47,200 nt of DNA from Candidatus Hodarchaeota archaeon (GTDB lineage: Archaea > Asgardarchaeota > Heimdallarchaeia > Hodarchaeales > Hodarchaeaceae), in assembly GCA_016839785.1 (NCBI GenBank), contig JAEOTQ010000124.1, positions 1-47,200 of the forward strand, given 5' to 3'. Each line of letters starts with the position of its first letter. Positions within the stretch are counted from its first letter, which is position 1. Shown here in pieces: positions 33,203 to 47,200 of the stretch. Both the position numbers and the translations under genes were made by a program. A model generated the notes under the pieces. That model was not told the DNA's origin. It searched no databases and saw nothing but the letters and a program-made list of their open reading frames with translations.

Positions 33203-35524
33203 ATGGCTGTTGGTAAACGTTTAAAGCGAAAAGATGCTGATACCAAGGTAACAGGAGAAGCTCCATATGCGTATGATTTGTCATTTGCAGATGAACATTA
33301 TCTAAAAGTAATACGGAGCCCCTATGCTCATGCAAAGATCTTGAGGGTAGAAATCGATTATAAACAACTTGAATCTCTGGGTGTAGTTGCAGGAACAGCA
33401 AAAGATCTGCCAGAAAAAGGAAAAAATGTTCTTCATGTTATCCATGATGACTGGCCTTTGCTTGCAGAGAAGGTTGTTCGACATGTGGGTGAACCTGTTG
33501 TAATATTAGTTGGCTCTACGTTGAAAATTACGGACGAAGCAAGCAAATACGTTTCAATCAAGTATGAAGTACTACCAGCTGTTTTCGATCCTGTGGAAGC
33601 AAAAGATCATCCTTCTATTCACATCTTTGAAGAGAACAATGTATGTTCGTATTGGCAACAAAAGAATGGGGATATTGAAAAGGGATTTTCTGAATCAGAT
33701 ATCATCATAGAGAATGAATACAGAACTCCTGCCCAAGAACATGCGTACATTGAAACGCAGGGATGTATAGCCGTACCTCAGGGACATGATTCAATGACTG
33801 TCTATGGCAGCATGCAGTGTCCATTCTATGTACAACGTTGCGCAGCAGAAGTGTTGGGACTGGAGTGGAGCAAAGTTAATATTATTCAAACTACCACTGG
33901 GGGGGCATTTGGTGGAAAAGAGGACGTTCCTAATCAGATTGGTAGTCTTGCAGCTTTTGGCGCTTGGCTTGTAAAAAAACCAGTAAAATTTCTACTTTCA
34001 AGAGAAGAAGATATTGAAACTACTTCAAAGAGACACCCTGCGGTTATTCGGTATAAAACTGGAGTAACAAAAGAGGGAGAGCTGAAAGCAATTAAAGCGG
34101 AAGTTTTTCTGAATACTGGAGCTTATGCTACGCTTGCACCTGCAGTTCTTTACAGAGCTGCACTGCATGCAGCTGGTCCTTACCGATGTGAGAATGTGGA
34201 TGTTCAAGCTTATGCTGTAACAACGAATTTAGTTCCTTTTGGGGCGTTTCGGGGATTTGGAAGTCCACAAGTAATTTTTCCAGGAGAGGAGCAGATGGAT
34301 CGTGCCGCAGAGAGCATTGGTATGGACCCTAGTGATTTCCGAGAGCGTCACATTCTCAAAGTGGGGGATAAAACAACATTTGGTCAAATCCTTGATCAGT
34401 CAGTCGGTTTAGAAGAAACTCTACACAAAGCACGAGAGCAAAGCAACTGGTATAAAAGACGTAAACCAACTCCTACAATAGCAGAAGTTCTAGAGGATCA
34501 GAAAAAAGGTAAGTATCGACGAAAAGGAATAGGTATAGCCACAATATTTTATGGATGTTTTTTAGGTGCTGCAGGAAAAATAATGTCACGATCTGGAGCC
34601 TATGTTCAGGTGGAACCTGATGGAAGTGTTCGCTTTGCAGTAGGAACTACAGAGATGGGCCAAGGTATGATCACTGTCCTTTCACAAATTGTGGCGGAAG
34701 AGTTGGGCATTGAATATGAAAAAGTACATATGACTCCTGTTGATACTAGCAGAGTACCTGACTCTGGACCAACTGTGGCAAGTCGTGCGACCATCATGTC
34801 GGGTCGTGCGCTTCAAGATGCTTGTGAAAAACTACGGGCCCTCATTTACGACAAAGTCGCTCTAAAATATGAACTTGATATAACAAATCTGGAAATCAAA
34901 GGTTATCAAATCCAAGAAATTACTTCACAGAAGAAAATTCTCTCTGTTTCAGATGCAATTAAACTTGTCTACCAAGAAAGAGGACAGGTAGCCGTAGCGG
35001 GATGGGATGTTGCACCACCGACGCATTATGATAACGAAAAAGGTCAAGGTGATGCTTACTCAGCATATGCATGGTGTACAAATATAATCGAGGTAGAAGT
35101 TGACTCACAGATAGGAACTGTTGACATTTTAAATATTTGGGCAGCTCACGATGTAGGAAAAGCAATTAATCCACAAACATTAGAAGGACAAATAGAAGGA
35201 GGAAGTTTACAGGGCCTAGGCTATGGGCGATATGAAGAAATTGTATTTACACCCGAAGGACGAGTGTTATCTAACAATTTAGGAACCTATCTCATCCCAA
35301 CAACGAAAGAAACCCCAAACATACATTCCATCATCGTAGAGGATCCTTGGAGCGATGGTCCATATGGAGCCAAGGGAATTGGTGAACAACCCCTTATGGG
35401 TATTGCCCCAGCACTCACAAATGCCATTGCGAATGCTGTAGGGATAAGATTAAACACAATTCCTGCTACTCCTGAAAGAGTATGGGCTGCTATTCAAGAG
35501 AAAATTATGGAGGAAGTAAAATGA
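33203..35524 (+). CDS. Xanthine dehydrogenase family molybdopterin-binding subunit
   Basis: RSPYAHA, GGAFGGKE, AFRGFGSPQ, EMGQG, GQIEGG, GAKGIGE. Confidence 0.93.
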   Translation: MAVGKRLKRKDADTKVTGEAPYAYDLSFADEHYLKVIRSPYAHAKILRVEIDYKQLESLGVVAGTAKDLPEKGKNVLHVIHDDWPLLAEKVVRHVGEPVVILVGSTLKITDEASKYVSIKYEVLPAVFDPVEAKDHPSIHIFEENNVCSYWQQKNGDIEKGFSESDIIIENEYRTPAQEHAYIETQGCIAVPQGHDSMTVYGSMQCPFYVQRCAAEVLGLEWSKVNIIQTTTGGAFGGKEDVPNQIGSLAAFGAWLVKKPVKFLLSREEDIETTSKRHPAVIRYKTGVTKEGELKAIKAEVFLNTGAYATLAPAVLYRAALHAAGPYRCENVDVQAYAVTTNLVPFGAFRGFGSPQVIFPGEEQMDRAAESIGMDPSDFRERHILKVGDKTTFGQILDQSVGLEETLHKAREQSNWYKRRKPTPTIAEVLEDQKKGKYRRKGIGIATIFYGCFLGAAGKIMSRSGAYVQVEPDGSVRFAVGTTEMGQGMITVLSQIVAEELGIEYEKVHMTPVDTSRVPDSGPTVASRATIMSGRALQDACEKLRALIYDKVALKYELDITNLEIKGYQIQEITSQKKILSVSDAIKLVYQERGQVAVAGWDVAPPTHYDNEKGQGDAYSAYAWCTNIIEVEVDSQIGTVDILNIWAAHDVGKAINPQTLEGQIEGGSLQGLGYGRYEEIVFTPEGRVLSNNLGTYLIPTTKETPNIHSIIVEDPWSDGPYGAKGIGEQPLMGIAPALTNAIANAVGIRLNTIPATPERVWAAIQEKIMEEVK

Positions 35525-35976
35525 TTATCAGAATTACCATAAATGGGAGATTTATTGTAAGAGATGTTCCTCCAAATCGACGATTATTAGATTTCTTAAG
35601 AGAAGATTTAGGTCTTAAAGGAACTAAGTATGGATGTGATCAAGGGGAATGTGGTGCCTGTTCTGTAATTCTGAATGATAAAATTGTTACTTCCTGCATT
35701 ATTTTGATGGCTCAAATACCTTTAAATAGCACTGTGCTTACAATAGAAGGAACAGATTCTGTTTTACAATTAATCCAAGAAAAATTTAAAGAATTCGGAG
35801 CTGCTCAATGTGGAGCATGTACCACGGGGATGATCATGGCGGCTACTTCTCTTCTCCACTTAAATCCGAATGTTAATCAAGAAGAAATTGAAGAAGGTCT
35901 ATGTGGGGTATTATGTAGGTGTACAGGATACACTAAGATTTATGATGCGGTTAAGGAGGCCCAAAAACAGCTTTAG
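35521..35976 (+). CDS. Xanthine dehydrogenase family [2Fe-2S] subunit
   Basis: GCDQGECGAC..SC and QCGAC..LCRCTGY; start at ATG 35521 after GGAGG. Confidence 0.93.
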   Translation: MIIRITINGRFIVRDVPPNRRLLDFLREDLGLKGTKYGCDQGECGACSVILNDKIVTSCIILMAQIPLNSTVLTIEGTDSVLQLIQEKFKEFGAAQCGACTTGMIMAATSLLHLNPNVNQEEIEEGLCGVLCRCTGYTKIYDAVKEAQKQL

Positions 35977-35984
35977 GTGATATT

Positions 35985-36788
35985 ATGAAAAATTTCTTTG
36001 AATTAATCCACCAAGAAGTAAGTGCTGGTAATCCAGTCTCCCTAGTAAGCGTTGTTGCAGTAGAAGGATCGGCCCCTCAACGAGTCGGTGCCAAAATGCT
36101 TGTTTCTTCTTCTGGAAAATTATTATGGGGAACAATTGGAGGAGGGACCGTAGAATCACTGGCATTAAAACAGGCAAAAATCCAACTTGAAACGAACACC
36201 CCATTACTCAAGTCATTTGACCTGATTGAGTCAGGTGAGGATGCAACTGGGATGTTATGTGGTGGAGAGATGCAACTATTTTTTGATGTGTTCGGAACCT
36301 CAACAAAGGTCTATATTTTTGGTGCAGGTCATATCACTCAACAAATTTTACCATTATTGATGAAATTAGGCTTTACTCCAATTGTATTAGACGATCGTGA
36401 AGAATACCTCAAAGAAAACATCTTATCCCGATTTAATGTCGCCACGCAGACTGGAGCTTTTACTGAACTAATTGATTTGTTGAATATTGAAGAAGACAGT
36501 TTTATCGTGATTATGACTTATTCCCATGAAATGGATGAGCAGATCCTTTTCCAATTACTTTCTCAAAAGCTTCCAGATCTGTCTATAGTGAAATATTTAG
36601 GTATGATTGGTAGTAAACGTAAGGTAAAAGAGATTTTTTCTAGAATGGAATCCAAAGGGATCTCACGTGAGATTTTAAATTCTATTCATTCACCTATTGG
36701 TGTTCCTATCAAAAGCCAGACCCCTGAGGAAATTGCGATCTCAATTGCTGCAGAATTAATTTCTGTACGGAATAAGGAGGAAAAATAA
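35985..36788 (+). CDS. xdhC: XdhC/CoxI family Moco-insertion accessory protein
   Basis: GSAPQRVGAKM, GTIGGG, CGG, FGAGH, YLGMIGSKRK, TPEEIAISIAAE. Confidence 0.9.
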   Translation: MKNFFELIHQEVSAGNPVSLVSVVAVEGSAPQRVGAKMLVSSSGKLLWGTIGGGTVESLALKQAKIQLETNTPLLKSFDLIESGEDATGMLCGGEMQLFFDVFGTSTKVYIFGAGHITQQILPLLMKLGFTPIVLDDREEYLKENILSRFNVATQTGAFTELIDLLNIEEDSFIVIMTYSHEMDEQILFQLLSQKLPDLSIVKYLGMIGSKRKVKEIFSRMESKGISREILNSIHSPIGVPIKSQTPEEIAISIAAELISVRNKEEK

Positions 36789-36789
36789 G

Positions 36790-37668
36790 CTGTACTCTAA
36801 TGAAATATTATCCCCGACTAGTCTAGTTGAAGCACTTGCAATAAAAGATCAGTACGGGAGTGATATTTTCCCCTTGGCAGGAGGTACAGATGTTCTTATA
36901 ATGGTGCGAAACAAATTAGGTGTATGGGGTGAATCACCACCACTACTGAATCTTAATTCCATTCCTGATCTCAATTTTATTCAGGAAACTGATACTAACA
37001 TAGAAATTGGACCATTGGTCACACATACTCAACTCTTAGAAAGCCCGATTATCGCAAAAAATATTCCTGTATTAAAAAAAGCAGTTTCTATTATTGGGTC
37101 TCCCCAAATACGTAATTTAGGAACGATTGTTGGGAATATGTGTAGAGCATCTCCTGCTGCGGATACTTTAGCACCATTATATACACGAAATACACTAGTT
37201 CAGGTTCAAACAGTCAATAATTCGGAATTACTACCTATAGATGAATTTATATCAGGTCCAGGACAAATATCTATTCCAAAAAATGGATTAGTAACCAAGA
37301 TCGTAATTCCAAAATTGGAGGGATATCGAGGAGACTATATTTCTCTTCGACAAAGGTATGCTTTATCAATTGTTGTCGTTTCCATCGCAGTAGAAGTTCT
37401 ACTTTCAAAAGATAAATTAAGAATCGATGATATTCGAATATCGTTGGGAGCTGTTGCGCCCACCATTGTCAGAGCTAGAAAAACGGAAAGTTTGTTGAAA
37501 TCTCACACTTTCAGTGAGGATTTAATTGAACAATCGGAAAAAATGATAGTAGAGGAATGTAGGCCAATCTCTGATATTCGATCGAATAAACGGTATCGAA
37601 AAGCAATGACAGGTGTGCTATTAGGGCGGATATTAAAAAATCTGAATCAATATATTGAGAATATATAA
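36790..37668 (+). CDS. Xanthine dehydrogenase family FAD-binding subunit
   Basis: AGGTD, QIRNLGTIVGN, ASPAAD, PISDIRS..YR; the conserved N-terminal SPTSLVEAL lies upstream of TTG 36874, implying a CTG start at 36790 after AGGAGG. Confidence 0.9.
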   Translation: MYSNEILSPTSLVEALAIKDQYGSDIFPLAGGTDVLIMVRNKLGVWGESPPLLNLNSIPDLNFIQETDTNIEIGPLVTHTQLLESPIIAKNIPVLKKAVSIIGSPQIRNLGTIVGNMCRASPAADTLAPLYTRNTLVQVQTVNNSELLPIDEFISGPGQISIPKNGLVTKIVIPKLEGYRGDYISLRQRYALSIVVVSIAVEVLLSKDKLRIDDIRISLGAVAPTIVRARKTESLLKSHTFSEDLIEQSEKMIVEECRPISDIRSNKRYRKAMTGVLLGRILKNLNQYIENI

Positions 37669-37716: not shown

Positions 37717-39858
37717 TTAGAAAAGCTTATCCTCATCTATAAGTAGATTTAAATATTCCTTCAGCTTATCCGAGGTGTCGTCTTTCTTTTGTTCATGTTT
37801 TATGATAACTTGTGTCTCTGAAATTTCCTTAAATTGCAAGGCGGCTCTTATTGAAGCATGAATAATCTTACTTGCAAATCGAACTGAACCCTCTGATTCT
37901 ATAGGAATTTGCATTGCTTCTTTCAATAAATTTCCAAGTTGTTGTTCTGATATTAGTTCAGAAATGTGTGCTTGTCCAATAGGAAATCCTCGTTGAGTAA
38001 AACTAAGGATAAACCCTTTTTTCACATATTCTAGAGTAAAGGCAACTGTTTCACTATCTGGAAGTGAGATTTCGTTTCCACTGGTTTCTAACTCAATTGG
38101 AATAATAAATTCGACCAGGTCCGCTCTAACTCCAGTTTCACTTCGAAGTGTTTTTGTAGTGACATCCATTGTTGAGCTGATTTTTTTAGCTTTTAATTGC
38201 TTGATTGAATTATAGATTATCTTAGCTGCGAAATACATTGATGAAATGCCATCTTCAAAAACGCCAATACTCATAAGATTCTTTTCATAGGCGAGTAAGT
38301 AAAGGATTTCCTCTTCTGTTGCTTCAGATGAAATCAAAGAACTTCCAAGCAATTCCTTTTGCCCCATTTTGCTCCGTAGCTGAAAAGAAATAAGAGCATT
38401 AAGACCAGCATCAACTAAATCTACTTTAAATCCCATCCCTTGAGTATTTGGTAATGCAATAACCCCTTCGTTGCTTTCCATCTCAACTGGAATGTCTAAA
38501 TGTGTATAATCTACTAATTTCTTTTTTACTTCTTTCTCTTTCTTTTGAACTACTTTTTTAGAAGGAATAATATAACTTTGAACTATTTCTCTCATGCTTA
38601 TGTGTGGTTTTTCAGATGCTAATACTAAGCATTTAACAATATCTGCTTCTTCTAATTCTCCCTTAAGAATCATTGAAAATAATCCAAGAAGTTTATTGTG
38701 ATCAATAGTTCGATACTTTTCTACCCCTTGAGATTTCTCAATAAATGGCAAGTACTTTAAGAAAATATCACTTACTAAAGGTACAGGCATTCCAGAAGTA
38801 ACACCCATTTCAAATAATTGGAGCCATCCACTATTTACAAGTTCATTAGCTTCTTCAAAACCGATACGATAGAATTCAATTAGGTGATTTACCTCAACCG
38901 AACTAGTAGGAGGAGTCAATTGAGATTCGGTCTCTATAGAAATTTCTTTAAGTGGTGGTGAAGTGAAGCTTTTTATTTCCATTTCCTCTGAATTGGGATC
39001 TCTGTGTACTAGGGTTGTTTCTGAAATAGATTCCTCGCTTGCTGCACTACCAAGAAAGACTTTAGATTCTTCAGAAACGTCTGATGCTGTTTTCAAAGAT
39101 TGTTTCATAAGAAAGCGTATTTTCTCTGCTACAGCAGTATCCTCATCCGATTCTGTTGGTATTAGTCGTGTTTGTGCCGAGTGAACTGCTGGTTCCATTT
39201 TTTCTGCAAGTGTCATAACAATTTCATGATGTTCTTCTATTTCCCCAATCAATCGTCCATTTACAAAGTCGCTTTGAGCAAGCTTTGGAATAGAAAGTTC
39301 AAAAATCCGTCCAAACGTGTCAATAACACTTTCAGGTCTATAAATTGTTGTTCTAAAAAATTTTAATTGATTTGAGGACTCAATTTGAAATTGCTCTTTT
39401 AATTGCTCATGAATTGATTCATAATTAGGGCTATTCCTAATTAAATCGTTCTTGTGTAAGAATATGAATATATTGGCTGCTGGAGAGAATTTCTTCAATT
39501 TTTCTAAACAAGCAGTGAAATATTGAATTGAGTTATTTCGTGAGGTTTTATTTGCAACATCAGTCAGAAAAATAAATATTTTAACATTACTAAATACAAA
39601 TGGACTAAATCCACTTAGAAATCGTTGTAAAAAGATCTTTTGTCCGCCCAAATCAACAATAGTGACTGGTATATCATTCACTGTGAGAGACAATCTTTCG
39701 TAATTAATTGTCGCAGACAGCTGATTCACGTCTTCAGTTTGCTGTTTTAAAAAGAAAATTCGCTTTACTGCGGTTTTTCCTGCTTCACTCAAACCAGCAA
39801 TTAAGATTTTATATCCGAGTTGTTGAGAAATCTCAGACTCTGAAACCCATCGTGACAT
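37717..39858 (-). CDS. Rag/Gtr-like small GTPase with long C-terminal extension containing two ~100-aa repeats
   Basis: G1 GLSEAGKT, G2 ATIN, G3 DLGGQ, G4 HKND, G5 TTI; start placed at ATG 39858. Confidence 0.85.
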   Translation of the reverse strand: MSRWVSESEISQQLGYKILIAGLSEAGKTAVKRIFFLKQQTEDVNQLSATINYERLSLTVNDIPVTIVDLGGQKIFLQRFLSGFSPFVFSNVKIFIFLTDVANKTSRNNSIQYFTACLEKLKKFSPAANIFIFLHKNDLIRNSPNYESIHEQLKEQFQIESSNQLKFFRTTIYRPESVIDTFGRIFELSIPKLAQSDFVNGRLIGEIEEHHEIVMTLAEKMEPAVHSAQTRLIPTESDEDTAVAEKIRFLMKQSLKTASDVSEESKVFLGSAASEESISETTLVHRDPNSEEMEIKSFTSPPLKEISIETESQLTPPTSSVEVNHLIEFYRIGFEEANELVNSGWLQLFEMGVTSGMPVPLVSDIFLKYLPFIEKSQGVEKYRTIDHNKLLGLFSMILKGELEEADIVKCLVLASEKPHISMREIVQSYIIPSKKVVQKKEKEVKKKLVDYTHLDIPVEMESNEGVIALPNTQGMGFKVDLVDAGLNALISFQLRSKMGQKELLGSSLISSEATEEEILYLLAYEKNLMSIGVFEDGISSMYFAAKIIYNSIKQLKAKKISSTMDVTTKTLRSETGVRADLVEFIIPIELETSGNEISLPDSETVAFTLEYVKKGFILSFTQRGFPIGQAHISELISEQQLGNLLKEAMQIPIESEGSVRFASKIIHASIRAALQFKEISETQVIIKHEQKKDDTSDKLKEYLNLLIDEDKLF

Positions 39859-40094
39859 CGCTAATTGTATCCTAAAATGTAAGATGAAAATCACAGATCA
39901 AAGAAGATTATTATTAGATATATTCATGTATATCTGTGAATAACATTATAATAAGCCTCCTAATTAACTCATCCGAAATTAATTGGGAGAATCTATTTAT
40001 AATTATTGATATCATTTATACAAATTATTAATTAGGTACAATTTCCCTGAGTATTAATAATTCATATGAATTCAACGAAGTGTTGTGATCATAG

Positions 40095-40991
40095 ATGCAA
40101 CAGAATAATAAACCTAACAAGGTATTGTTTATGGGACTGGGAGCAAGTGGCAAAAGTAGCATTAGATCAATTGTATTTGAAGGAAAATCTTTAGAAGATG
40201 TTAAGGATTATAATGCTACTATTAATTATACTCGTTCAACAAAGAATATTATTGACGCACCTTTTCAAATTTTCGATTGTGGTGGTCAAGAGAGTTTTAT
40301 CTCAGTTTTTGTGGGTGAGCAAGCTGAATTTATTTTTAGTGATGTGGCGGTTCTTATCTGGGTAATAGATGTGTCAAATTTCGACGCTGTTTCTACTTCA
40401 AGATTCTATTTTAATCTGGCCCAAAAAAAATTAGTAGAATACTCCAAAGGAGCAATTATATTCTGTCTTCTCCACAAAATGGATTTATTAATACCTGATA
40501 TGAAAAAAAATGTCAATGAAACAATAGAATCGTATTTTAGCCCGATAGCTGGAGTAGAAATTAAATATAGAAGTACATCGATATTTGATCAATCCATCTA
40601 CAATGTTGTAGGGGAGATGATTCAAGCACTTATTCTTAAAAGTACGAAAGCTCAATCAGTGTCAGGGGCAATTGAAGAATTTATTAAAACGCATGATGAA
40701 ATGGCGGGTGTAGCTATCTACACGGATGATGGTTTACCTGTTTTCGAAGAAGGAGATACCGATAGAATAATCTTACCAGCCAATCTCTGGTTGGCGTCAT
40801 ATGATAGGTTATCTAAGGAATATCATCGGGAAGGTATGAAAACAATACTTGAGACAGAAAATTATATTTTCGTGTTCCGCAATATCAAATCTGAACTTCT
40901 CCTTTCAGGAATTGCTCGAAAAATAGCTCCATTACAATATGTTTTGGTAAAAATGGAACAATTAGAAGAGATATTGAATAAACTACTCTAA
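40095..40991 (+). CDS. RagA/Gtr1-like GTPase with C-terminal roadblock domain
   Basis: KVLFMGLGASGKSSIRSIVF, DCGGQ, IFSDVAVLIWVIDV, IFCLLHKMDL, TSIFD; C-terminal GVAIYTDDGLPV..ILETENYIFVF roadblock pattern. Confidence 0.9.
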   Translation: MQQNNKPNKVLFMGLGASGKSSIRSIVFEGKSLEDVKDYNATINYTRSTKNIIDAPFQIFDCGGQESFISVFVGEQAEFIFSDVAVLIWVIDVSNFDAVSTSRFYFNLAQKKLVEYSKGAIIFCLLHKMDLLIPDMKKNVNETIESYFSPIAGVEIKYRSTSIFDQSIYNVVGEMIQALILKSTKAQSVSGAIEEFIKTHDEMAGVAIYTDDGLPVFEEGDTDRIILPANLWLASYDRLSKEYHREGMKTILETENYIFVFRNIKSELLLSGIARKIAPLQYVLVKMEQLEEILNKLL

Positions 40992-41101
40992 AAATCGAAG
41001 AAGAATTGACAAAAAACATTACTTTAACATCATCGTATTGGCGCCTTACAGTATCCTTGTCAATTCATACTGAATAATAATGAAATTATTGGAAAGTCGG
41101 A

Positions 41102-42448
41102 TTATTTATCATTACTTTGCTTTTTTTCTTCATCGGTCATGTATTTGCCAAATAAATTCTGAATATCATCCATTGCTATTTGTAATTCTTCATGTGGAAC
41201 ACCTTTTGACCTTTCAAACCAACCTCTCTTAATTGTGGACTTTGAATCATCATGATATGCAATCAGATTAGAAGCATCATTGAAAACATCCCGTAATTCT
41301 GGAATACGAGGTAAACCAAATAGGAGAAGTAATGAAGATTTTTCCATTTCGGGATCGTCATATGATACAAACGATGGTTGAATGGATCCTCCTTTCACTA
41401 AATAGGGTGCTAAGATTTTTTTCAAGTAAGCAGAATACTCAAGTTTCGAAATATCTTTATTACCAGTCAATATGGAGTATACTGAACCTGCAGCAGGTTT
41501 TTTATCAATATCCGTTAAGGAACAGTGATTGACGGTGTATCTAGCCGCTAAAGCCATTTGCTTATCCATTCGTCCATATTCAGGCAAAAAATACATGTCT
41601 TCAAAGAAACACGGAACTACAACTGGATCTAGTCTTCGAGAATAGTCAGCTAAATCAGTCGTAGGCATAACCTTTTTACCATGTTCTTGAATGCTTGGAG
41701 AGAGAATTGATTCTATAGTACGTAGAGCTAGCGGATTTACTAACTGTGTGAACTCTACTCCAGCGTCTGTTCGTAATTTTTCATCATTTTTTGTTAAATT
41801 TGAGGAATCTATACCAAGAGATTGATCTAATAAACCATTAGCTCGGCCTTCTCTCCACTCCATTACTCGTTTTAACATAGTTTTATTTGATAACAAGAAA
41901 ATTAAATTAGGACCTTTTTTTGGTTCTAATTGATTTCTTAATAGTGTTGATAAAGACCAAATTGAGTTTATTGCTTCAGAAGACTGGTTTTCAAATGGTA
42001 GGACACCAAATACATAAATGAAAATTCTACGTTCATCAGAAAAATGTTTATGTAACAGTTCAACAAGAGCAGGGGTTCCCCCGCACCCAGTCCCCCCACC
42101 CATGCTTGTTAATAGTATAAAACCTGAAACTCCTTCATAACCTAAACCCTGGAGTTGATTAAGAATAACCTCTTGATTTTTCATAACAAGTTCGTAACCT
42201 TCTTTAAATTTCCCTCCTACTCCTATCTCTTCATCAGAATACAATAGTGTATTGCGACTTGGAATTGAATATTCTGTTCTAGTTTTGAGAAGATCAGTCT
42301 TATCAGTATTCATTATGAGGTATTCACGAATCCGTGTGGAACCAGTTCGATTTTTTTCTTCCTGAATATAGGATCCTACTAAATTAGATCCACATTCACC
42401 TAATCCGATCACAAATACATCTGTCTCTCTACTAATTTCACTCATCAT
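41102..42448 (-). CDS. Divergent tubulin/FtsZ-superfamily GTPase with tubulin-like C-terminal helices
   Basis: IGLGECGSNL, MNTD, GVGG, GFILLTSMGGGTGCG, VLPF, NSIWSL, TDLADY..LDP, WF..G....E...A..D...L...Y; GAGGT RBS. Confidence 0.9.
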   Translation of the reverse strand: MMSEISRETDVFVIGLGECGSNLVGSYIQEEKNRTGSTRIREYLIMNTDKTDLLKTRTEYSIPSRNTLLYSDEEIGVGGKFKEGYELVMKNQEVILNQLQGLGYEGVSGFILLTSMGGGTGCGGTPALVELLHKHFSDERRIFIYVFGVLPFENQSSEAINSIWSLSTLLRNQLEPKKGPNLIFLLSNKTMLKRVMEWREGRANGLLDQSLGIDSSNLTKNDEKLRTDAGVEFTQLVNPLALRTIESILSPSIQEHGKKVMPTTDLADYSRRLDPVVVPCFFEDMYFLPEYGRMDKQMALAARYTVNHCSLTDIDKKPAAGSVYSILTGNKDISKLEYSAYLKKILAPYLVKGGSIQPSFVSYDDPEMEKSSLLLLFGLPRIPELRDVFNDASNLIAYHDDSKSTIKRGWFERSKGVPHEELQIAMDDIQNLFGKYMTDEEKKQSNDK

Positions 42449-42460
42449 TTCTATTACCTC

Positions 42461-45400
42461 TTATCTATGCATTACGTAATACTCAACTGCAAATGAAAGG
42501 TATTTCATCATTGGTTGATGTGAATAAGCTTCCTCAATCTCCCTCTTAGCGTTAGCGATATAAGTAACCTTTGCTTCATGAACTGTAGTAGGAACATAAT
42601 CACTAATGAAAAGAAATAGCAAACGTTGCCATTTTGTAAGTAATGGTAAACTTTCTTGTCTCCACTGAGTTTTTAGCTTTGATATAGTGGTCAATATATC
42701 GTAAACTTCATTTAGATTTGTTTCAACCTGCAAACTTGCTCTTGCATCAATTAACTTCTTTAAAGGAAAAATATCTTCAGAACATTCATCAAGTTTAAAT
42801 TCGAAAACAGCATGAATACTTGGATAGTAGGGAACTTTTGGATCATTCGAAAGGTCACTTAAATAAAGTTCATAATTTTTCTTTTCCAATTCTCTAATAG
42901 ATTCGAGACATAATTTAGTCGCCTCCACAATTTCTATAGTGGAACTGGCTATTAGATCAAACGACCAAAATTGTACTGCATTTCGAGCTTGTTTTATTCT
43001 TACTACGTGTGGCATTAATGTCTGTTGAGTATTTTTCCAACCTAATGCCTGAATGAAGTCAAGTATTCTGATAGCTGTGGTATTTGTTGAATCAATAATT
43101 GCAAATAACGATTTTTGTAATTCCTCGTTCTTCAAAATTTTATCTAGCTCAACAAAAGATTGAGTAAGCATTTCAATTGACATCATGTCACTAGTATCGG
43201 CTTGTATTAGTTGTGTGAAAACTTCTATTTGTTCTCCAACAAGATTTTGGATATCTGTTAATCCACATGCCTGAAGTTGACTAATTTTTCGTAGAAGGTT
43301 TTTACTTGCAATGCTTAGTAATTCCATAAGTTTGGCTAATAAGATATATTCATAATCATGAATTGTTTCCACAATCAATCGATTTAGGGACTCTAATGTT
43401 TGTCCTTCAATAGGAATGGTACTCTCAAGATATGAATGAACTTTATGGACTTCAGGAGATACATCACCCATTGCTTCAATTATTCGGGGGAGACTTACAG
43501 TTACTTTATTATAAAATAACGCTTTTAATTTTTCTAATCCTTCCTGAGCTTTAGTAGTTGCATTATTCAAGAAGAATTCAAATTTTGTCATGATATCCTC
43601 TAGATCCTTGGATTGGCTAAGTTCAGTAATCCCTTGTTCAAGAACTAAGAATAATTGATTAAACATTCCTAAATAATGTGTTGGGAGTGACTTATATTGT
43701 TTTAACCATCCAGATAAAATATCTCGACATTTCAGTCGAACTAATTCACTTCTCTTGGTATTATATGTGTGTAAGCGGAACCAAAGCTCTAATAGATCGG
43801 AATAATCAAGTGCTTCCAAATCTCTAGGAATTTCAAACATTGGGAGTGATCCAATCTCTTCTTTGAAGTGTGTTAGGGATGATCGTTTGATGCTATCAAC
43901 CAGTTCAATCTGTCTCGAACATTCTTCTATCATCGTGCCTTTTGATGAGCTCATGAGTTTCATAAACTCGAAGTAAGCTTTGATCATTGCAATCGAATTC
44001 CGAGAAGCAGAGGTTCCAGTTAATTTTATTATAAGTTCATTTTTCTCTTTCCGTAAATCGACTGGAACTTCACCAGGAATCATGGGAAAGTTGAGTGCCT
44101 CTATTTTGTTTTTGAGATAAGAAAGCGTTTTCTGCTTCCAATCCTCGACTTCATCAATCCTGTCAAGTAATTCAGATAAGTCAAGTTCACCTGCATCTTC
44201 TACAAACGGAGTACGAGGTAGATTTGGATCCGATTGTAGTAATTCTAAAATAGTTACATTCTTTACATAATCTTTGATGGAAGCTGCAGTCAATGTGACG
44301 AATTGCTTGTAAAGTCTGTCATATGAGCGTCTATAAAGTAAAAGGGTCTGTATATCAGATTCTGAAGCCATTTTATCATAAAGTGAATTCAGTTCAGTCT
44401 GAAAATTAGGTGGAAAGTTGTTTATTCCTTTTTTTTCAATTTTACTTGCTATCGTAATTGTATCATTTATTGCATGCCTTGCTTCTTGAAGGACATTAAC
44501 AAGTTTATTTTTCCATATGTTGACCGATCTCAAATAATTCAACAGTTCAGTTGGACTATCAGACTCAAAGACAACAACAGGTGGTTTAAGCGATATTAAT
44601 GCCTTAGAATCTGAGTCTGTAGCTTCAAAAGCAAGCTTATTCCGAATTTCTTCACGAATAATTTCCAAAAATTCAGAATAATATACATGAAAATTCTTTA
44701 GCTTTGATAATACCTCTTTTAAGTTGTCTGGTGTTTCCTGAACACGATTCGCGTGTTCTTTGGCGTTGACTAATAGAGTATTCGGTATTGACACCCCCTC
44801 TTGAAACACTCCTTCATTAGCCTGATAAAGCTCTTCTGTAGAAGCTATTCTTTTAACTCCGTTAATAACGTTTGTTTTCCATGTTTGGATTTGCTCCAAA
44901 TAATTCGCTAATTCTGATATCGAAGAATTGGTCATCGCTATCTCTGGAGGGAGTGGAATTAATTTATCGGAAAGTGTTGGAAACAATCCCCTTATCTGAA
45001 CGATACTATTGTTAATCGAGCTTTTTATTCGTGTTATCTCAGATTTAATAGTAGTACTAAACTTCGTTATGAGGGTAGATAGGGATCTATGGAGCTGATT
45101 AAGCTCGTATATCGTCTTCACTTGTTCGATTTCACTAATTAACTGCTGAATACCTTGATATTCTGAACTATCTGTTATAATTTTCCCTTTCTCCGCTTCA
45201 TTTATTGAATACAATAGATCATGTGTCTGTTGAAGCATCTTCTCTTGAACTAAATTCTTAGAGGAGGCTAATTGCAGATCTATAAGTTTTCCTTCCTCCT
45301 TAAGCTCAAAATATACCTTGATCAATCCTTGTGGATCATAAGTAGATAATATCTCATCATTTAAACTTTTACTCAGCTTTAAAGCACTGGATTCTATCTT

Positions 45401-45889
45401 GAATAGATCAGTATATATGGTAATTTTGGATTTATTCTCATCTAATACCTTAGAACATAAATCCTTTACTTGTCTGATTGAGATTTCTAATACTGTTTCT
45501 AAATCTTTAATAAAATCATCAATAGCGTTAATTTCAGATGTTAACGGCAGATTAAGACTCTTTAATGAGTTTGCTGCTTGTGGAGCAACGGTTGATAAAC
45601 TGTTTGCTTGATCGTTAAGTCTTGGTTTAAGTGTTTTAACAATTGATTCATAAATGCATTCTAAACAGTCATCTTCTCCTGTCTTTATCAGAGCCTGGAT
45701 TTCTTCCTGTTGTTTCTTTAATCCTCTTTTGGCTATCCTTCCAGCAGATCTAATCTCATCCTCTAGTTGAGAATATTTTTGAATTTGCTTGGAAAGAGAA
45801 GTGAGGTTTCGTGAGCAAACAGGTGTACTAAAATGTTTATTCAGTCTAGAGAGTAAATCTGTTATTTTCTTCATATTCTTAGAAGACAT
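42461..45889 (-). CDS. 1142-aa all-helical rod-like protein with ~122-125-aa internal repeats
   Basis: Long amphipathic helices, recurring P..EL..YL....WK motif; no Walker A motif or TM segment seen. Confidence 0.8.
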   Translation of the reverse strand: MSSKNMKKITDLLSRLNKHFSTPVCSRNLTSLSKQIQKYSQLEDEIRSAGRIAKRGLKKQQEEIQALIKTGEDDCLECIYESIVKTLKPRLNDQANSLSTVAPQAANSLKSLNLPLTSEINAIDDFIKDLETVLEISIRQVKDLCSKVLDENKSKITIYTDLFKIESSALKLSKSLNDEILSTYDPQGLIKVYFELKEEGKLIDLQLASSKNLVQEKMLQQTHDLLYSINEAEKGKIITDSSEYQGIQQLISEIEQVKTIYELNQLHRSLSTLITKFSTTIKSEITRIKSSINNSIVQIRGLFPTLSDKLIPLPPEIAMTNSSISELANYLEQIQTWKTNVINGVKRIASTEELYQANEGVFQEGVSIPNTLLVNAKEHANRVQETPDNLKEVLSKLKNFHVYYSEFLEIIREEIRNKLAFEATDSDSKALISLKPPVVVFESDSPTELLNYLRSVNIWKNKLVNVLQEARHAINDTITIASKIEKKGINNFPPNFQTELNSLYDKMASESDIQTLLLYRRSYDRLYKQFVTLTAASIKDYVKNVTILELLQSDPNLPRTPFVEDAGELDLSELLDRIDEVEDWKQKTLSYLKNKIEALNFPMIPGEVPVDLRKEKNELIIKLTGTSASRNSIAMIKAYFEFMKLMSSSKGTMIEECSRQIELVDSIKRSSLTHFKEEIGSLPMFEIPRDLEALDYSDLLELWFRLHTYNTKRSELVRLKCRDILSGWLKQYKSLPTHYLGMFNQLFLVLEQGITELSQSKDLEDIMTKFEFFLNNATTKAQEGLEKLKALFYNKVTVSLPRIIEAMGDVSPEVHKVHSYLESTIPIEGQTLESLNRLIVETIHDYEYILLAKLMELLSIASKNLLRKISQLQACGLTDIQNLVGEQIEVFTQLIQADTSDMMSIEMLTQSFVELDKILKNEELQKSLFAIIDSTNTTAIRILDFIQALGWKNTQQTLMPHVVRIKQARNAVQFWSFDLIASSTIEIVEATKLCLESIRELEKKNYELYLSDLSNDPKVPYYPSIHAVFEFKLDECSEDIFPLKKLIDARASLQVETNLNEVYDILTTISKLKTQWRQESLPLLTKWQRLLFLFISDYVPTTVHEAKVTYIANAKREIEEAYSHQPMMKYLSFAVEYYVMHR

Positions 45890-45953
45890 ATTTTATCCTT
45901 CCATTTTGTCCCTAATTTGGTTCATACAATATCAATAATATCCTATGGATTTC

Positions 45954-46892
45954 CTATAAAGTTGTAGAAGATTGGATTTGTATCCATGCTAATGAACACC
46001 TAATTATATATTCAGCAAGTGCTTTCACACAATCCTTGATCTTTTTCCGCATGGTCAGTTCAACCAGTCTAAAAGGAATATTTGATAAATCCTCTTCAGA
46101 GGTTCCTAATATTTGACCTGACAATTCGTTTAGTTTTTCCGATATTTGAGTTGAAAGTAGTGGAATATACTTTGCCCAATCAAAATGAATTAATATACCT
46201 AAAGATAACCGATGAGTCTGTCCTTTATCCAACCATTTTTTTGGACTATAAAGGAATATTGAGGAAGTATATTCTGCGAAATCAATATTTAACGCTGAGG
46301 CTCCCAAATCCTTACCTAAATCAGTTTGATCTCCATTTAGTTCATCATCCTCAATATGCTTCTCAACAAATAAAGAAAACATATCTAGTACCTGTTTTTT
46401 ATCTACTTCACTCATATCATAAGTTACTTCCCACAGGGAAGATGTTGAACCTTGAAAAGCGGAAAAAAAATCGATAATGACTGCAATTTTAGCTTCTTTC
46501 ATTCTACTATAGATTTTTTCATATGGGATGCTCTCTCCCACTTCCAATAAACTTTGGAATGCTGATTCATCTGCATCAAAGAAAGAAGCAAAATCAGTTA
46601 TGGAAGTTTCTTCAACCCCTTCTTCAGCTCCAAAAGCCATCGCTGCGATATCTTCTAAATCCATTTCCTGTAGTGCTCTTTTCTTTTCCTCTCTCTCTTC
46701 AATTTCCGAAAATAATGATGATACCATTGAAGAATCATAGAATAGTTGATAGATTCTTAGAAGTAGATCATTAAGTTCATTTTCTTTAATATCTGCGTTG
46801 AATTCCCTAAGAATCGAACGCATTACTACATGTTTCGCCATCCGTGTTGAACGGACCTTATCTTCGATTTCACCAGTTACGAATTTTGACAT
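45954..46892 (-). CDS. Hypothetical protein: helical N-domain, acidic linker, putative longin/uDENN-like C-domain
   Basis: AVIIDFFSAFQGSTSSLW beta-hairpin; ALNIDF..YTSSIFLY..RLSLGILI beta-strands followed by helices. Confidence 0.55.
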   Translation of the reverse strand: MSKFVTGEIEDKVRSTRMAKHVVMRSILREFNADIKENELNDLLLRIYQLFYDSSMVSSLFSEIEEREEKKRALQEMDLEDIAAMAFGAEEGVEETSITDFASFFDADESAFQSLLEVGESIPYEKIYSRMKEAKIAVIIDFFSAFQGSTSSLWEVTYDMSEVDKKQVLDMFSLFVEKHIEDDELNGDQTDLGKDLGASALNIDFAEYTSSIFLYSPKKWLDKGQTHRLSLGILIHFDWAKYIPLLSTQISEKLNELSGQILGTSEEDLSNIPFRLVELTMRKKIKDCVKALAEYIIRCSLAWIQIQSSTTL

Positions 46893-47102
46893 TGGAGTTC
46901 ATCTTATAATAGAGATAAGTTTCGAGAGAAATATACGAATGATTGTAGCTTCGACCTCTTCTATGAAATCTTTGAGTATAAAATAACTAACTTACTTTTA
47001 AAAATATTGCAATGGAAATAATTAACCAAAATAGAGTAATCATTCAATATTCTTTAATTCCATGACCATCATGACTAATTTTGTCAGACAACTAGTTGAA
47101 AA

Positions 47103-47200
47103 CTAATTCTGGACAGGATGAGTCACACATCCGCTATCCGGCAGGTTAGCAACCAGAGAATGACTGCTTTCCATTGGGACTACTTGGGGGTCAGAGCGAA
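47103..47200 (-). other. GC-richer edge segment, possibly the 3' end of a minus-strand gene (tnpB-like C-terminus) and/or a structured RNA
   Basis: Minus frame reads ..RSDPQVVPMESSHSLVANLPDSGCVTHPVQN*; contains hairpins; truncated by the window edge. Confidence 0.25.

Follow-up and report, generated by a model that had tools for sequence, protein, structure and literature searches.

The window analysed here is the entire 47200 nt contig JAEOTQ010000124.1 (assembly GCA_016839785.1) of a Candidatus Hodarchaeota archaeon of the order Hodarchaeales, and this report concerns a block of five genes at positions 37717 to 46892. Three of them are co-oriented and encode proteins of 312 amino acids (aa) (P312), 1142 aa (Rod1142) and 448 aa (Tub448, tubulin-like); the other two encode Rag-like GTPases of 298 aa (Rag298) and 725 aa (Rag725). 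The data suggest that Rod and Tub belong to a conserved Asgard operon and that the window holds a lineage-specific copy of it, here called copy A, which would encode a filament and its scaffold, with the longin-domain protein P312 as a possible adaptor. This is the best explanation of the block and we consider it, taken as a whole, reasonably probable. An earlier reading of the window from its letters alone (the sequence-only reading) had proposed an undescribed filament–scaffold–adaptor system, possibly under the control of the neighbouring Rag-like pair. The best-supported result, judging from sequence comparison, is the conserved Asgard operon in which Tub is paired with a giant helical protein, together with its Hodarchaeales derivative that carries a longin gene.

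A conserved Rod–Tub pair in Asgard archaea

A Tub profile built from copy A and its paralogue, copy B, was searched against 400 Asgard genomes, with matches accepted up to an expect value (E) of 1e-20. The Tub family is present in 127 of these genomes and the Rod family, searched with a Rod profile, in 129, and the two occur in the same families of genomes. Tub was found in 15 of the 19 genomes of family f12, in all five of f28 and in 76 of the 89 genomes of three pooled families, and was not found in f20 (0/135), f3 (0/31), f4 (0/12) or f5 (0/12). Counted family by family, Rod and Tub give the same picture, with both at 0 of 135 in f20 and 5 of 5 in f28, and with a difference of at most one genome for f12 and for the three pooled families. 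Adjacency was read from the two match tables, compared by hand, in the 105 Tub-holding genomes outside the genus of the window genome. Rod lies immediately upstream of Tub on the same strand in 91 of the 105, usually with about 50-70 nt between the matched ranges and in one case with about 560 nt. In the remaining 14 the two are split over contigs (nine genomes, most with a match cut at the contig end), the position of Rod is unlisted (two) or there is no Rod match (three). Gene neighbourhoods and phyletic profiles across Asgard genomes were among the checks that the sequence-only reading had asked for, and Rod and Tub are linked by both.

Twelve loci were chosen to spread over eight other families. 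All twelve show a Rod gene (873-1029 aa), a Tub gene (440-499 aa) and a third gene resembling one that we call B_335 (293-380 aa), in that order and with tiny gaps or overlaps. With eight loci of the genus included, the third gene is downstream of Tub in all 20 B-type loci examined; B_335 has no match in Pfam or PDB profiles. The usual form of the Asgard operon is therefore Rod→Tub→third gene, without longin or Rag genes, as far as gene order in these genomes shows. The module is thus not the isolated novelty that it appeared to be from the window, where the Asgard-wide pair lacks its usual downstream gene. Rod (about 870-1170 aa) and the Tub directly downstream would probably be translated from one transcript.

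The Tub family stands apart in a set of 1.84 billion cluster representatives, with five matches below 1e-30; beyond those five there are distant groups, one of them from Baldrarchaeia. It is single-copy and chromosomal in most of the genomes that hold it, and its tree groups the sequences by genome family.

Tub448 is a divergent member of the tubulin/FtsZ superfamily

The Tub448 gene (41102 to 42448, minus strand) comes from the table of open reading frames (ORFs), and its product matches PF00091 (Tubulin) in Pfam with 69 bits against a cut-off of 33 (E 8.5e-19, residues 11-171). The best PDB matches are the CetZ entries 4b46, 4b45 and 3zid (E 2.9e-10 to 2e-5), in an alignment confined to the N-terminal GTPase domain (residues 13-171). 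Tubulins, whether eukaryotic, Odin or bacterial, match at E 9e-5 or worse and over about 90-110 residues only. The 448 aa protein is therefore tubulin-like, as had been proposed, with CetZ as its nearest solved relatives. Two more specific identities were considered and rejected. Tub448 is not FtsZ proper, as it scores 39.4 bits against a cut-off of 295 with the TIGR00065 equivalog, and it is not a eukaryote-type tubulin (a class taken to include OdinTubulin, AtubA/B and BtubA/B), as there is no strong full-length similarity. The same genome has a second PF00091 locus on contig C180 with a much stronger match (E 1.1e-45), which is presumably its FtsZ gene, and paralogue B of Tub, 52-55% identical to Tub448, is on contig C230.

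The motifs GGGTGCG, which we take from its pattern to be the T4 signature, and T-T-D-x-x-D (TTDLAD), presumably the acidic residues of the T7 loop, are invariant in all 16 aligned A and B Tub sequences. This makes a polymer-activated GTPase plausible for Tub448. By analogy Tub would bind GTP and polymerise head-to-tail into filaments, in which the acidic residues of one subunit's T7 loop would complete the active site of the next, as they do in FtsZ, CetZ and tubulin. Taken together, the comparisons identify Tub448 as a divergent GTPase of the tubulin/FtsZ superfamily and as the genus-level paralogue A of an Asgard-specific, CetZ-like family.

An alternative is that Tub and Rod act as a machine for segregating or positioning DNA, or as a GTPase complex that does not polymerise, rather than as a scaffolded cytoskeleton. 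TubZ and PhuZ are prokaryotic tubulin relatives that move DNA and have dedicated partner genes, and this precedent could extend to Rod and Tub, given that no known family resembles the C-terminal half of Tub and that neither a fold nor a family is known for B_335, the third gene of the ancestral operon. However, no DNA-binding, plasmid or phage gene was seen in the 20 B-type loci examined, and a chromosomal, mostly single-copy family whose tree follows the genome families is what vertical descent predicts. The invariance of the acidic residues for polymer-dependent hydrolysis speaks against the non-polymerising form. We consider this alternative unlikely and keep to the proposal that Tub would form filaments.

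A CetZ-like group of Asgard proteins named Asg.Tub was described in 2023 (Santana-Molina, del Saz-Navarro & Devos, 2023; PMC9871819). According to the available part of that paper it is confined to Asgard archaea, occurs in Heimdallarchaeia and 'Lokiarchaeia', is nearer to CetZ than to true tubulins, has a C-terminal part that matches no other family and has unknown coiled-coil genes as neighbours. Taxonomic range, nearness to CetZ, the unique C-terminus and the neighbours all fit the Tub448 family, which is very probably Asg.Tub, as matched by description and not sequence by sequence. The term 'undescribed' used in the sequence-only reading is therefore too wide for the tubulin-like family itself. 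It still applies to the fixed Rod→Tub→third-gene operon, the Hodarchaeales duplicate, the longin gene and the Rag neighbourhood, none of which is described in the same part of the paper. A literature search found the name Asg.Tub in no other paper, and a search on Asgard Rag GTPases, longin, roadblock and tubulin gave, among the papers listed, no title or abstract start that names the module. CetZ itself is the best solved-structure match and shares the GTPase-domain motifs, but CetZ-like outgroup sequences stand on a separate long branch in our quick tree, and the gene neighbourhoods given for CetZ in the available text of PMC9856176 (pili, cofactor and sugar genes) are unrelated to that of Tub448.

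Rod1142 is a helical-repeat protein

The Rod1142 gene occupies 42461 to 45889 on the minus strand (ORF table). An AlphaFold2 (AF2) model of the protein, built from 24 sequences, contains helices only, with a predicted local distance difference test score (pLDDT) of 83 and a predicted template modelling score (pTM) of 0.38. Residues 314-421 are repeated at 436-544 (hhalign self-comparison, probability 95%, E 2.7e-8) and there are further, weaker copies, so that the model can be read as a series of helical bundles whose internal repeats are about 110-120 aa long. This agrees with the helical repeats that had been guessed for the 1142 aa protein.

Sequence and profile searches of Pfam, NCBIfam and PDB found no relatives of Rod1142. 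Foldseek returned nothing significant; its best match is dynein heavy chain (E 3e-3, probability 0.41), and PRC1 stands at rank 34 (E 0.46). VIA-align found local antiparallel three-helix bundles only, with Z scores up to 9.5, a value below the level that is meaningful for helical proteins; EzrA is at rank 35 with a root-mean-square deviation (rmsd) of 29 Å, and there is no EzrA match in Pfam. In the ESM Atlas only uncharacterised Asgard clusters were matched (score 0.79, Thorarchaeota, 897 aa). On the model, 'helical-repeat rod' is a fair description of Rod1142, and kinship to EzrA or PRC1 is unsupported.

Superfamily GTPases are known to work with a helical or repeat protein that organises the polymer, namely BtubA/B with BtubC, FtsZ with EzrA and tubulin with PRC1/Ase1. 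Tub and Rod share the general build of these systems, a GTPase with a long helical or repeat protein. The analogy with EzrA and PRC1 made by the sequence-only reading extends to that build and not to any specific match, as shown by the ranks and the rmsd given above. Rod matches none of BtubC, EzrA and PRC1/Ase1, and EzrA has an N-terminal membrane anchor whereas none is predicted in Rod. Rod could then be a dedicated partner of Tub, a long soluble scaffold that would bind, bundle, space or anchor the filaments.

Gene junctions in the window

The ORF table confirms the five genes, their strands and the gaps of 64 and 12 nt that had been reported for the window. The P312 gene (45954 to 46892, minus strand) is the first of the operon. 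It is separated from Rod by 64 nt (45890 to 45953), in which GGAAGGA stands 6 nt before the ATG, and Rod is separated from Tub by 12 nt (42449 to 42460; TAA-GAGGTAATAGAA-ATG), which include GAGGT, a Shine-Dalgarno-like motif; both junctions are on the minus strand and were read directly, and both fit a single transcript. The analysis thus shows the set of genes, their folds and motifs and the retention of their order, and from these we infer that Tub polymerises, that Rod binds Tub and that P312, Rod and Tub are co-transcribed. An AT-rich region with TATA-like stretches, also read directly, lies upstream of P312 (46893 to 47050, minus strand) and is a putative operon promoter. As the window is the entire contig, nothing further upstream of P312 is visible here.

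All five reading frames are retained as proteins in related genomes, which indicates that they are true genes and not chance ORFs of an AT-rich genome (about 34% GC). No membrane segment is predicted in any of the five proteins. A sediment metatranscriptome (X1; one run, Logan contigs) contains short pieces of 160-288 nt that match the window. They are identical to Tub at 41977-42214 and near-identical to Rod at 42918-43220 and 43659-43823; other, more diverged pieces fall on Rag725, and 46548-47200 is also covered. No piece among those listed spans a gene junction and carry-over of DNA is possible, so these matches show neither transcription nor co-transcription.

Copy A is a duplicate that arose within Hodarchaeales

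Twenty-two genomes of the genus were compared, including that of the window (G000). Copy A is present in nine of them (G000, G003, G006, G010, G012, G015, G019, G020 and G021). Full-length Tub-A matches are 83-87% identical to the window gene and Tub-B about 55%; for Rod the corresponding values are 60-73% (A) and about 23% (B). Within the genus P312 exists only in the A-linked form. Rod-A is directly upstream of Tub-A in all eight genomes whose contig reaches that far, and the gap between them is 10-26 nt in seven orthologous loci according to our ORF calls. P312 is directly upstream of Rod-A in six genomes, and in G020 it is on a small contig with the start of Rod; the order P312→Rod is thus kept in all seven P312-bearing genomes. 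The three-gene operon that had been proposed is therefore conserved in every related genome where the contigs allow it to be seen.

Copy B shows the order Rod-B→Tub-B→B_335→B_224 in all eight genus loci that were fetched. A quick maximum-likelihood tree of 35 Tub sequences, seven of them distant representatives chosen as outgroups, places all Hodarchaeales sequences in one clade (support of 98 in the Shimodaira–Hasegawa-like approximate likelihood ratio test, SH-aLRT). The Tub-A clade has a support of 100 and a long stem, and stands beside a sister-family sequence together with the B copies (85). On this sequence evidence copy A is a fast-evolving duplicate that arose within Hodarchaeales, lost the third gene and gained a longin gene upstream. 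In the proposed scheme, then, the pair would have been duplicated in Hodarchaeales, and copy A, having lost the downstream gene and gained P312, would now sit inside a Rag-GTPase module.

Several features of the B loci may be recorded here. The fourth gene, B_224 (about 224-297 aa), is co-oriented with the others in the eight genus loci (L022-L028) and absent from the 12 loci of other families; it has weak coiled-coil-type Pfam matches (EzrA, E 2.4e-5, below the cut-off). On contig C230 of G000 (locus L013, 6906-16744) Rod-B and Tub-B are about 10 kb apart and enclose an AAA ATPase (425 aa) and six unknown genes (200, 233, 292, 348, 563 and 773 aa). In G002 they are separated by about 4 kb that includes homologues of the 773 aa gene, and in five other genus loci with an intact Rod-B (G010, G008, G001, G012 and G011) they abut. 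The Rod-B frame of G016 (locus L026, 8903-10882) is only 659 aa long and corresponds to the C-terminal half, with small ORFs upstream; this Rod-B is perhaps a disrupted gene, or else reflects an assembly error.

The splitting of the B-type pair by about 10 kb and 4 kb shows that insertions do occur at the locus, and would be in keeping with the five-gene block being part of a mobile element or defence island rather than a housekeeping system. Against this, GC content is even across the window (0.33-0.41) with no step at the block, Pfam and NCBIfam scans recognised no integrase, transposase or defence gene among the five, and the operon is conserved across the phylum with one copy per genome. 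We regard a mobile or defensive origin as very improbable.

P312 carries a longin domain

No Pfam or PDB sequence match was found for P312. A search of 5.8 billion proteins returned 39 homologues, all at least 54% identical, and those with a named source are all from Hodarchaeales or other Asgard archaea and all annotated as 'hypothetical'. The AF2 model (26 sequences) reaches a pLDDT of only 70 and consists of N-terminal helices (residues 7-134) followed by a ββ-α-βββ-αα unit. The top Foldseek matches are longin domains: 8yqg, a Lokiarchaeota roadblock-longin protein, at a borderline E of 1.2e-3, and then Lst4. VIA-align gave Z scores of 10.4 for a TRAPP subunit, 10.3 for Lst4, 10.2 for a C9orf72-SMCR8 entry, 9.4 for chain H of a FLCN-FNIP2-Rag-Ragulator entry and 8.7 for 8yqg. 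Its first 11 rows are all longin proteins (Z 10.4 to 8.0), and longin proteins also make up nearly all of rows 1 to 37, with matches over residues 126-302. That P312 carries a C-terminal longin domain (about 126-302) is thus well supported by the model.

The sequence-only reading had called P312 longin/uDENN-like. The longin part stands, but P312 is not a full DENN protein, as the chain ends at residue 312 right after the longin helices and the remainder consists of the N-terminal helices. Two other relationships were rejected: P312 is neither a shuffled homologue of B_335 (hhalign probability 0.3%) nor a homologue of C78_339, a protein of the Rag module described below (0.2%). The longin domains of the regulators FLCN-FNIP/Lst4-Lst7, NPRL2-NPRL3, C9orf72-SMCR8, TRAPP and Mon1-Ccz1 superpose on P312 over the whole domain (Z 7.4-10.4). 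P312 differs from them in having no sequence similarity, a single longin domain with N-terminal helices, and no DENN core or partner domain. These proteins regulate Rag or other small GTPases, and the P312 gene lies three genes away from the Rag-like pair. As longin domains commonly serve as platforms on which small GTPases are bound and regulated, P312 is a candidate adaptor between the filament system and the Rag298–Rag725 pair, which is a weaker step of the scheme.

The Rag-like pair and the Rag module

Rag298 (40095 to 40991, plus strand, ORF table) matches PF04670 (Gtr1_RagA) with 131.6 bits against a cut-off of 22, with a G domain at residues 9-184. Its best PDB matches are Gtr1/RagA (E 1.6e-23), the motifs GxxxxGKS, DCGGQ and HKMD are intact and its orthologues are 64-91% identical. 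The tail of about 110 aa (about 185-298) would by its length suit a roadblock domain. Rag725 (37717 to 39894, minus strand, ORF table) matches PF04670 with 107.4 bits against the same cut-off, has a G domain at 29-205 with the nucleotide motifs kept, and finds RagA as its best PDB match (E 2.6e-19). The two are therefore a Rag-like pair, as had been claimed for them. After its G domain Rag725 has a poorly conserved linker and then about 400 aa of conserved C-terminal sequence. This extension (residues about 330-725; window 37720-38900) contains two units that resemble each other, at about 470-580 and 590-700. There is a faint NCBIfam GatE match at 319-445 (25 bits, far below the cut-off), and the ESM Atlas matches of the extension are uncharacterised Asgard clusters only (0.80). 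Conservation among 14 Rag725 orthologues and paralogues begins at Met13, and the listed GTG start adds 12 unconserved residues, so the gene probably starts at about 39858 (about 713 aa). Gtr1/RagA is the best match for both window GTPases, which here form a conserved divergent pair of a short and a long gene; the extension of about 500 aa sets Rag725 apart from the eukaryotic RagA/B-RagC/D (Gtr1-Gtr2) heterodimer and from the Asgard Rag-like proteins of PDB entries 8yl2 and 9m28.

The Tub448 gene is convergent with that of Rag298, with the stop codons 110 nt apart, and the two Rag genes are divergent across an AT-rich intergenic region of 200 nt (39895 to 40094, read directly), which probably holds a promoter region shared by both. 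A Rag725 orthologue is within two genes of Tub-A, and the next gene after Tub-A is a member of the Rag pair, in all nine copy-A genomes. That neighbour is the long Rag in G010, G012, G015, G003, G020 and G021; in G000, G006 and G019 an inversion of the pair puts the short Rag next to Tub-A. Twelve loci, from 11 of the genus genomes examined, show a long and a short Rag as a divergent pair; G019 has a thirteenth, which is set apart, its contig ending inside Tub-A. A gene of 243-266 aa adjoining P312 is common to G006, G012 and G015.

The Rag pair also occurs elsewhere in the genus. G008, G013 and G002, which have no copy A, contain a full module with the order [339 aa protein][short Rag]<->[long Rag][giant protein]. 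Of the other genomes without copy A, G017 keeps the long Rag and the giant protein and G018 keeps the Rag pair. G000 itself has a second full module on contig C78 (locus L014, 5856-15762). The module recurs at loci L030, L034 and L035, and a third, partial module is on contig C41. The profile of the 339 aa protein (C78_339) gives only faint winged-helix-like PDB matches (E 0.2-0.3). The giant protein (C78_1807 type) has at least 1807 aa, a single strong membrane segment at about 1591-1609 and, after it, a conserved cytoplasmic tail of about 200 aa; it resembles a receptor and may be what the Rag pair actually works with.

P312 may itself be derived from the cytoplasmic domain of these giant proteins, which is a weak lead from sequence matches. 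In six genomes residues 113-264 of P312 weakly match large proteins (per-genome E 3e-5 to 7.5e-4). All 26 P312-family members weakly match an ORF on contig C213 over the whole longin domain (best E 1e-7 in BLASTP, with a very small search space), and this ORF belongs to the family formed by the C-terminal cytoplasmic domains of giant single-pass membrane proteins (E 5.9e-41). If true, such an origin would tie P312 to the Rag module by descent.

Other observations concern the surroundings of the Rag genes. HSP90 is uncommon in archaea; a full-length HSP90-family gene (PF00183, E 1e-104) is present in G010 (locus L015, 3668-5551) beside the 339 aa gene, of which this genome has two tandem copies, and in G008 (L030) the corresponding place is taken by a 629 aa ORF. 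G006 has a second long-Rag-like gene (locus L019, 9919-11190; 33-35% identical and truncated by the end of the contig) two genes upstream of P312, so that in this genome Rag-like genes flank P312, Rod and Tub on both sides. The four genes just before the Rag pair in the window (33203-37668) keep the same order in G004 (locus L029).

Is copy A linked to the Rag GTPases?

The sequence-only reading had held the three-gene operon to be better supported than its link to the Rag genes, and this is borne out, as the Rag pair is also found without the P312–Rod–Tub triad. An alternative to a functional link is that the adjacency is a historical accident, in which a duplicated Rod–Tub pair landed once inside an existing Rag module and was then inherited. 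The triad would in that case work like the ancestral operon and the Rag pair would work with proteins of the C78_339 and giant C78_1807 types. The occurrence of the module without copy A, complete in G008, G013, G002 and on contig C78 of G000 and in part in G017 and G018, speaks for this alternative. The 339-type gene also flanks the Rag pair adjoining the triad in G010, G003 and G020, and a homologue of the C-terminal part of the giant protein is two genes beyond P312 in G010 and G012, so that both flanks of the triad belong to the Rag module. This suggests, as the simplest history consistent with the gene orders, that the duplicated pair was inserted once, with the long Rag gene on one side and the gene of the giant protein on the other. 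Additionally, no Rag neighbour is present at the ancestral operon (12/12 loci of other lineages and 8/8 B loci of the genus), Rag-like genes are common in G000 (36 PF04670 matches, about 13 of them strong) and all nine copy-A genomes come from one genus.

There are also points that accident does not readily explain. With about 13 strong matches among a few thousand genes, the chance of landing by a Rag-like gene is about 1 in 100, a rough and post hoc figure. The adjacency has outlived a local inversion and divergence of Rod and P312 to about 60% identity. The sole gene gained by copy A encodes a longin domain, a fold that typically regulates small GTPases, and P312 has a weak similarity to the cytoplasmic domain of the giant protein in the Rag module. 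On these data we see the historical accident as evenly balanced between true and false.

The following points weigh against our explanation of the block, and above all against its Rag-linked part. The widespread ancestral operon has neither longin nor Rag genes, so Rag control is not its general mode of action. The carriers of copy A are all related, and the adjacency in nine of nine genomes therefore does not amount to nine independent observations. Rag genes without copy A are found in at least five genus genomes, where they have conserved neighbours of their own, and in G012 and G021 no short-Rag orthologue follows the long Rag. The homologue of the giant protein beyond P312 counts on the same side. 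Tub-A and the nearest Rag gene are convergent, which excludes a shared transcript. Concerning P312, comparison with the profile of the giant-protein C-terminus gave an hhalign probability of 3.6% (E 0.012), and neither family's profile finds the other. The C-terminal half of Tub448 has no detected relative in Pfam or PDB sequence searches. As Rod has no specific structural relative, calling it a scaffold draws on its shape and gene position alone. A complex prediction for P312, Rag298, residues 1-230 of Rag725 and two GTP scored 0.00 against a mark of 0.32; it was run without controls and is evidence neither way.

Since the Rag pair exists without the triad and the triad looks inserted, the conserved adjacency is weak evidence for control by small GTPases. 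Coupling of the copy-A derivative to the neighbouring Rag proteins is accordingly a speculative and rather doubtful proposal. A stricter version, in which a Rag-like heterodimer acting through P312 (perhaps derived from the cytoplasmic domain of the giant receptor-like proteins) controls the place or time of Rod–Tub assembly, seems to us improbable.

Significance

These findings bear on how the eukaryotic cytoskeleton arose and how it came to be controlled by small GTPases. Studies of Asgard archaea have until now concentrated on actin, on ESCRT and on true tubulins, which are rare, as far as the available parts of the sources show. According to the part of PMC13394414 (2026) that is available, true Asgard tubulins, a different and much rarer family, occur in about 1% of Asgard genomes. 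The Tub family is far commoner, with about one-third of the 400 Asgard genomes sampled. For small GTPases, the accessible text of Tran et al. (2024; PMC10933270) reports a Rag-like gene pair in one operon in strain MK-D1 and states that small-GTPase genes of this strain are generally not in operons with longin or roadblock genes. The Hodarchaeales duplicate thus offers a concrete pairing of a longin protein with specific Rag-like GTPases, which, going by the same text, the layout of Asgard genomes rarely does. If the stricter version, with Rag control through P312, is true, the system would foreshadow in a prokaryote the regulation of cytoskeleton and membrane organisation by GTPases, in the archaea that are placed closest to eukaryotes. 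If the Rag link is only inherited synteny, Rod and Tub would still constitute a well-defined, conserved and uncharacterised cytoskeletal operon.

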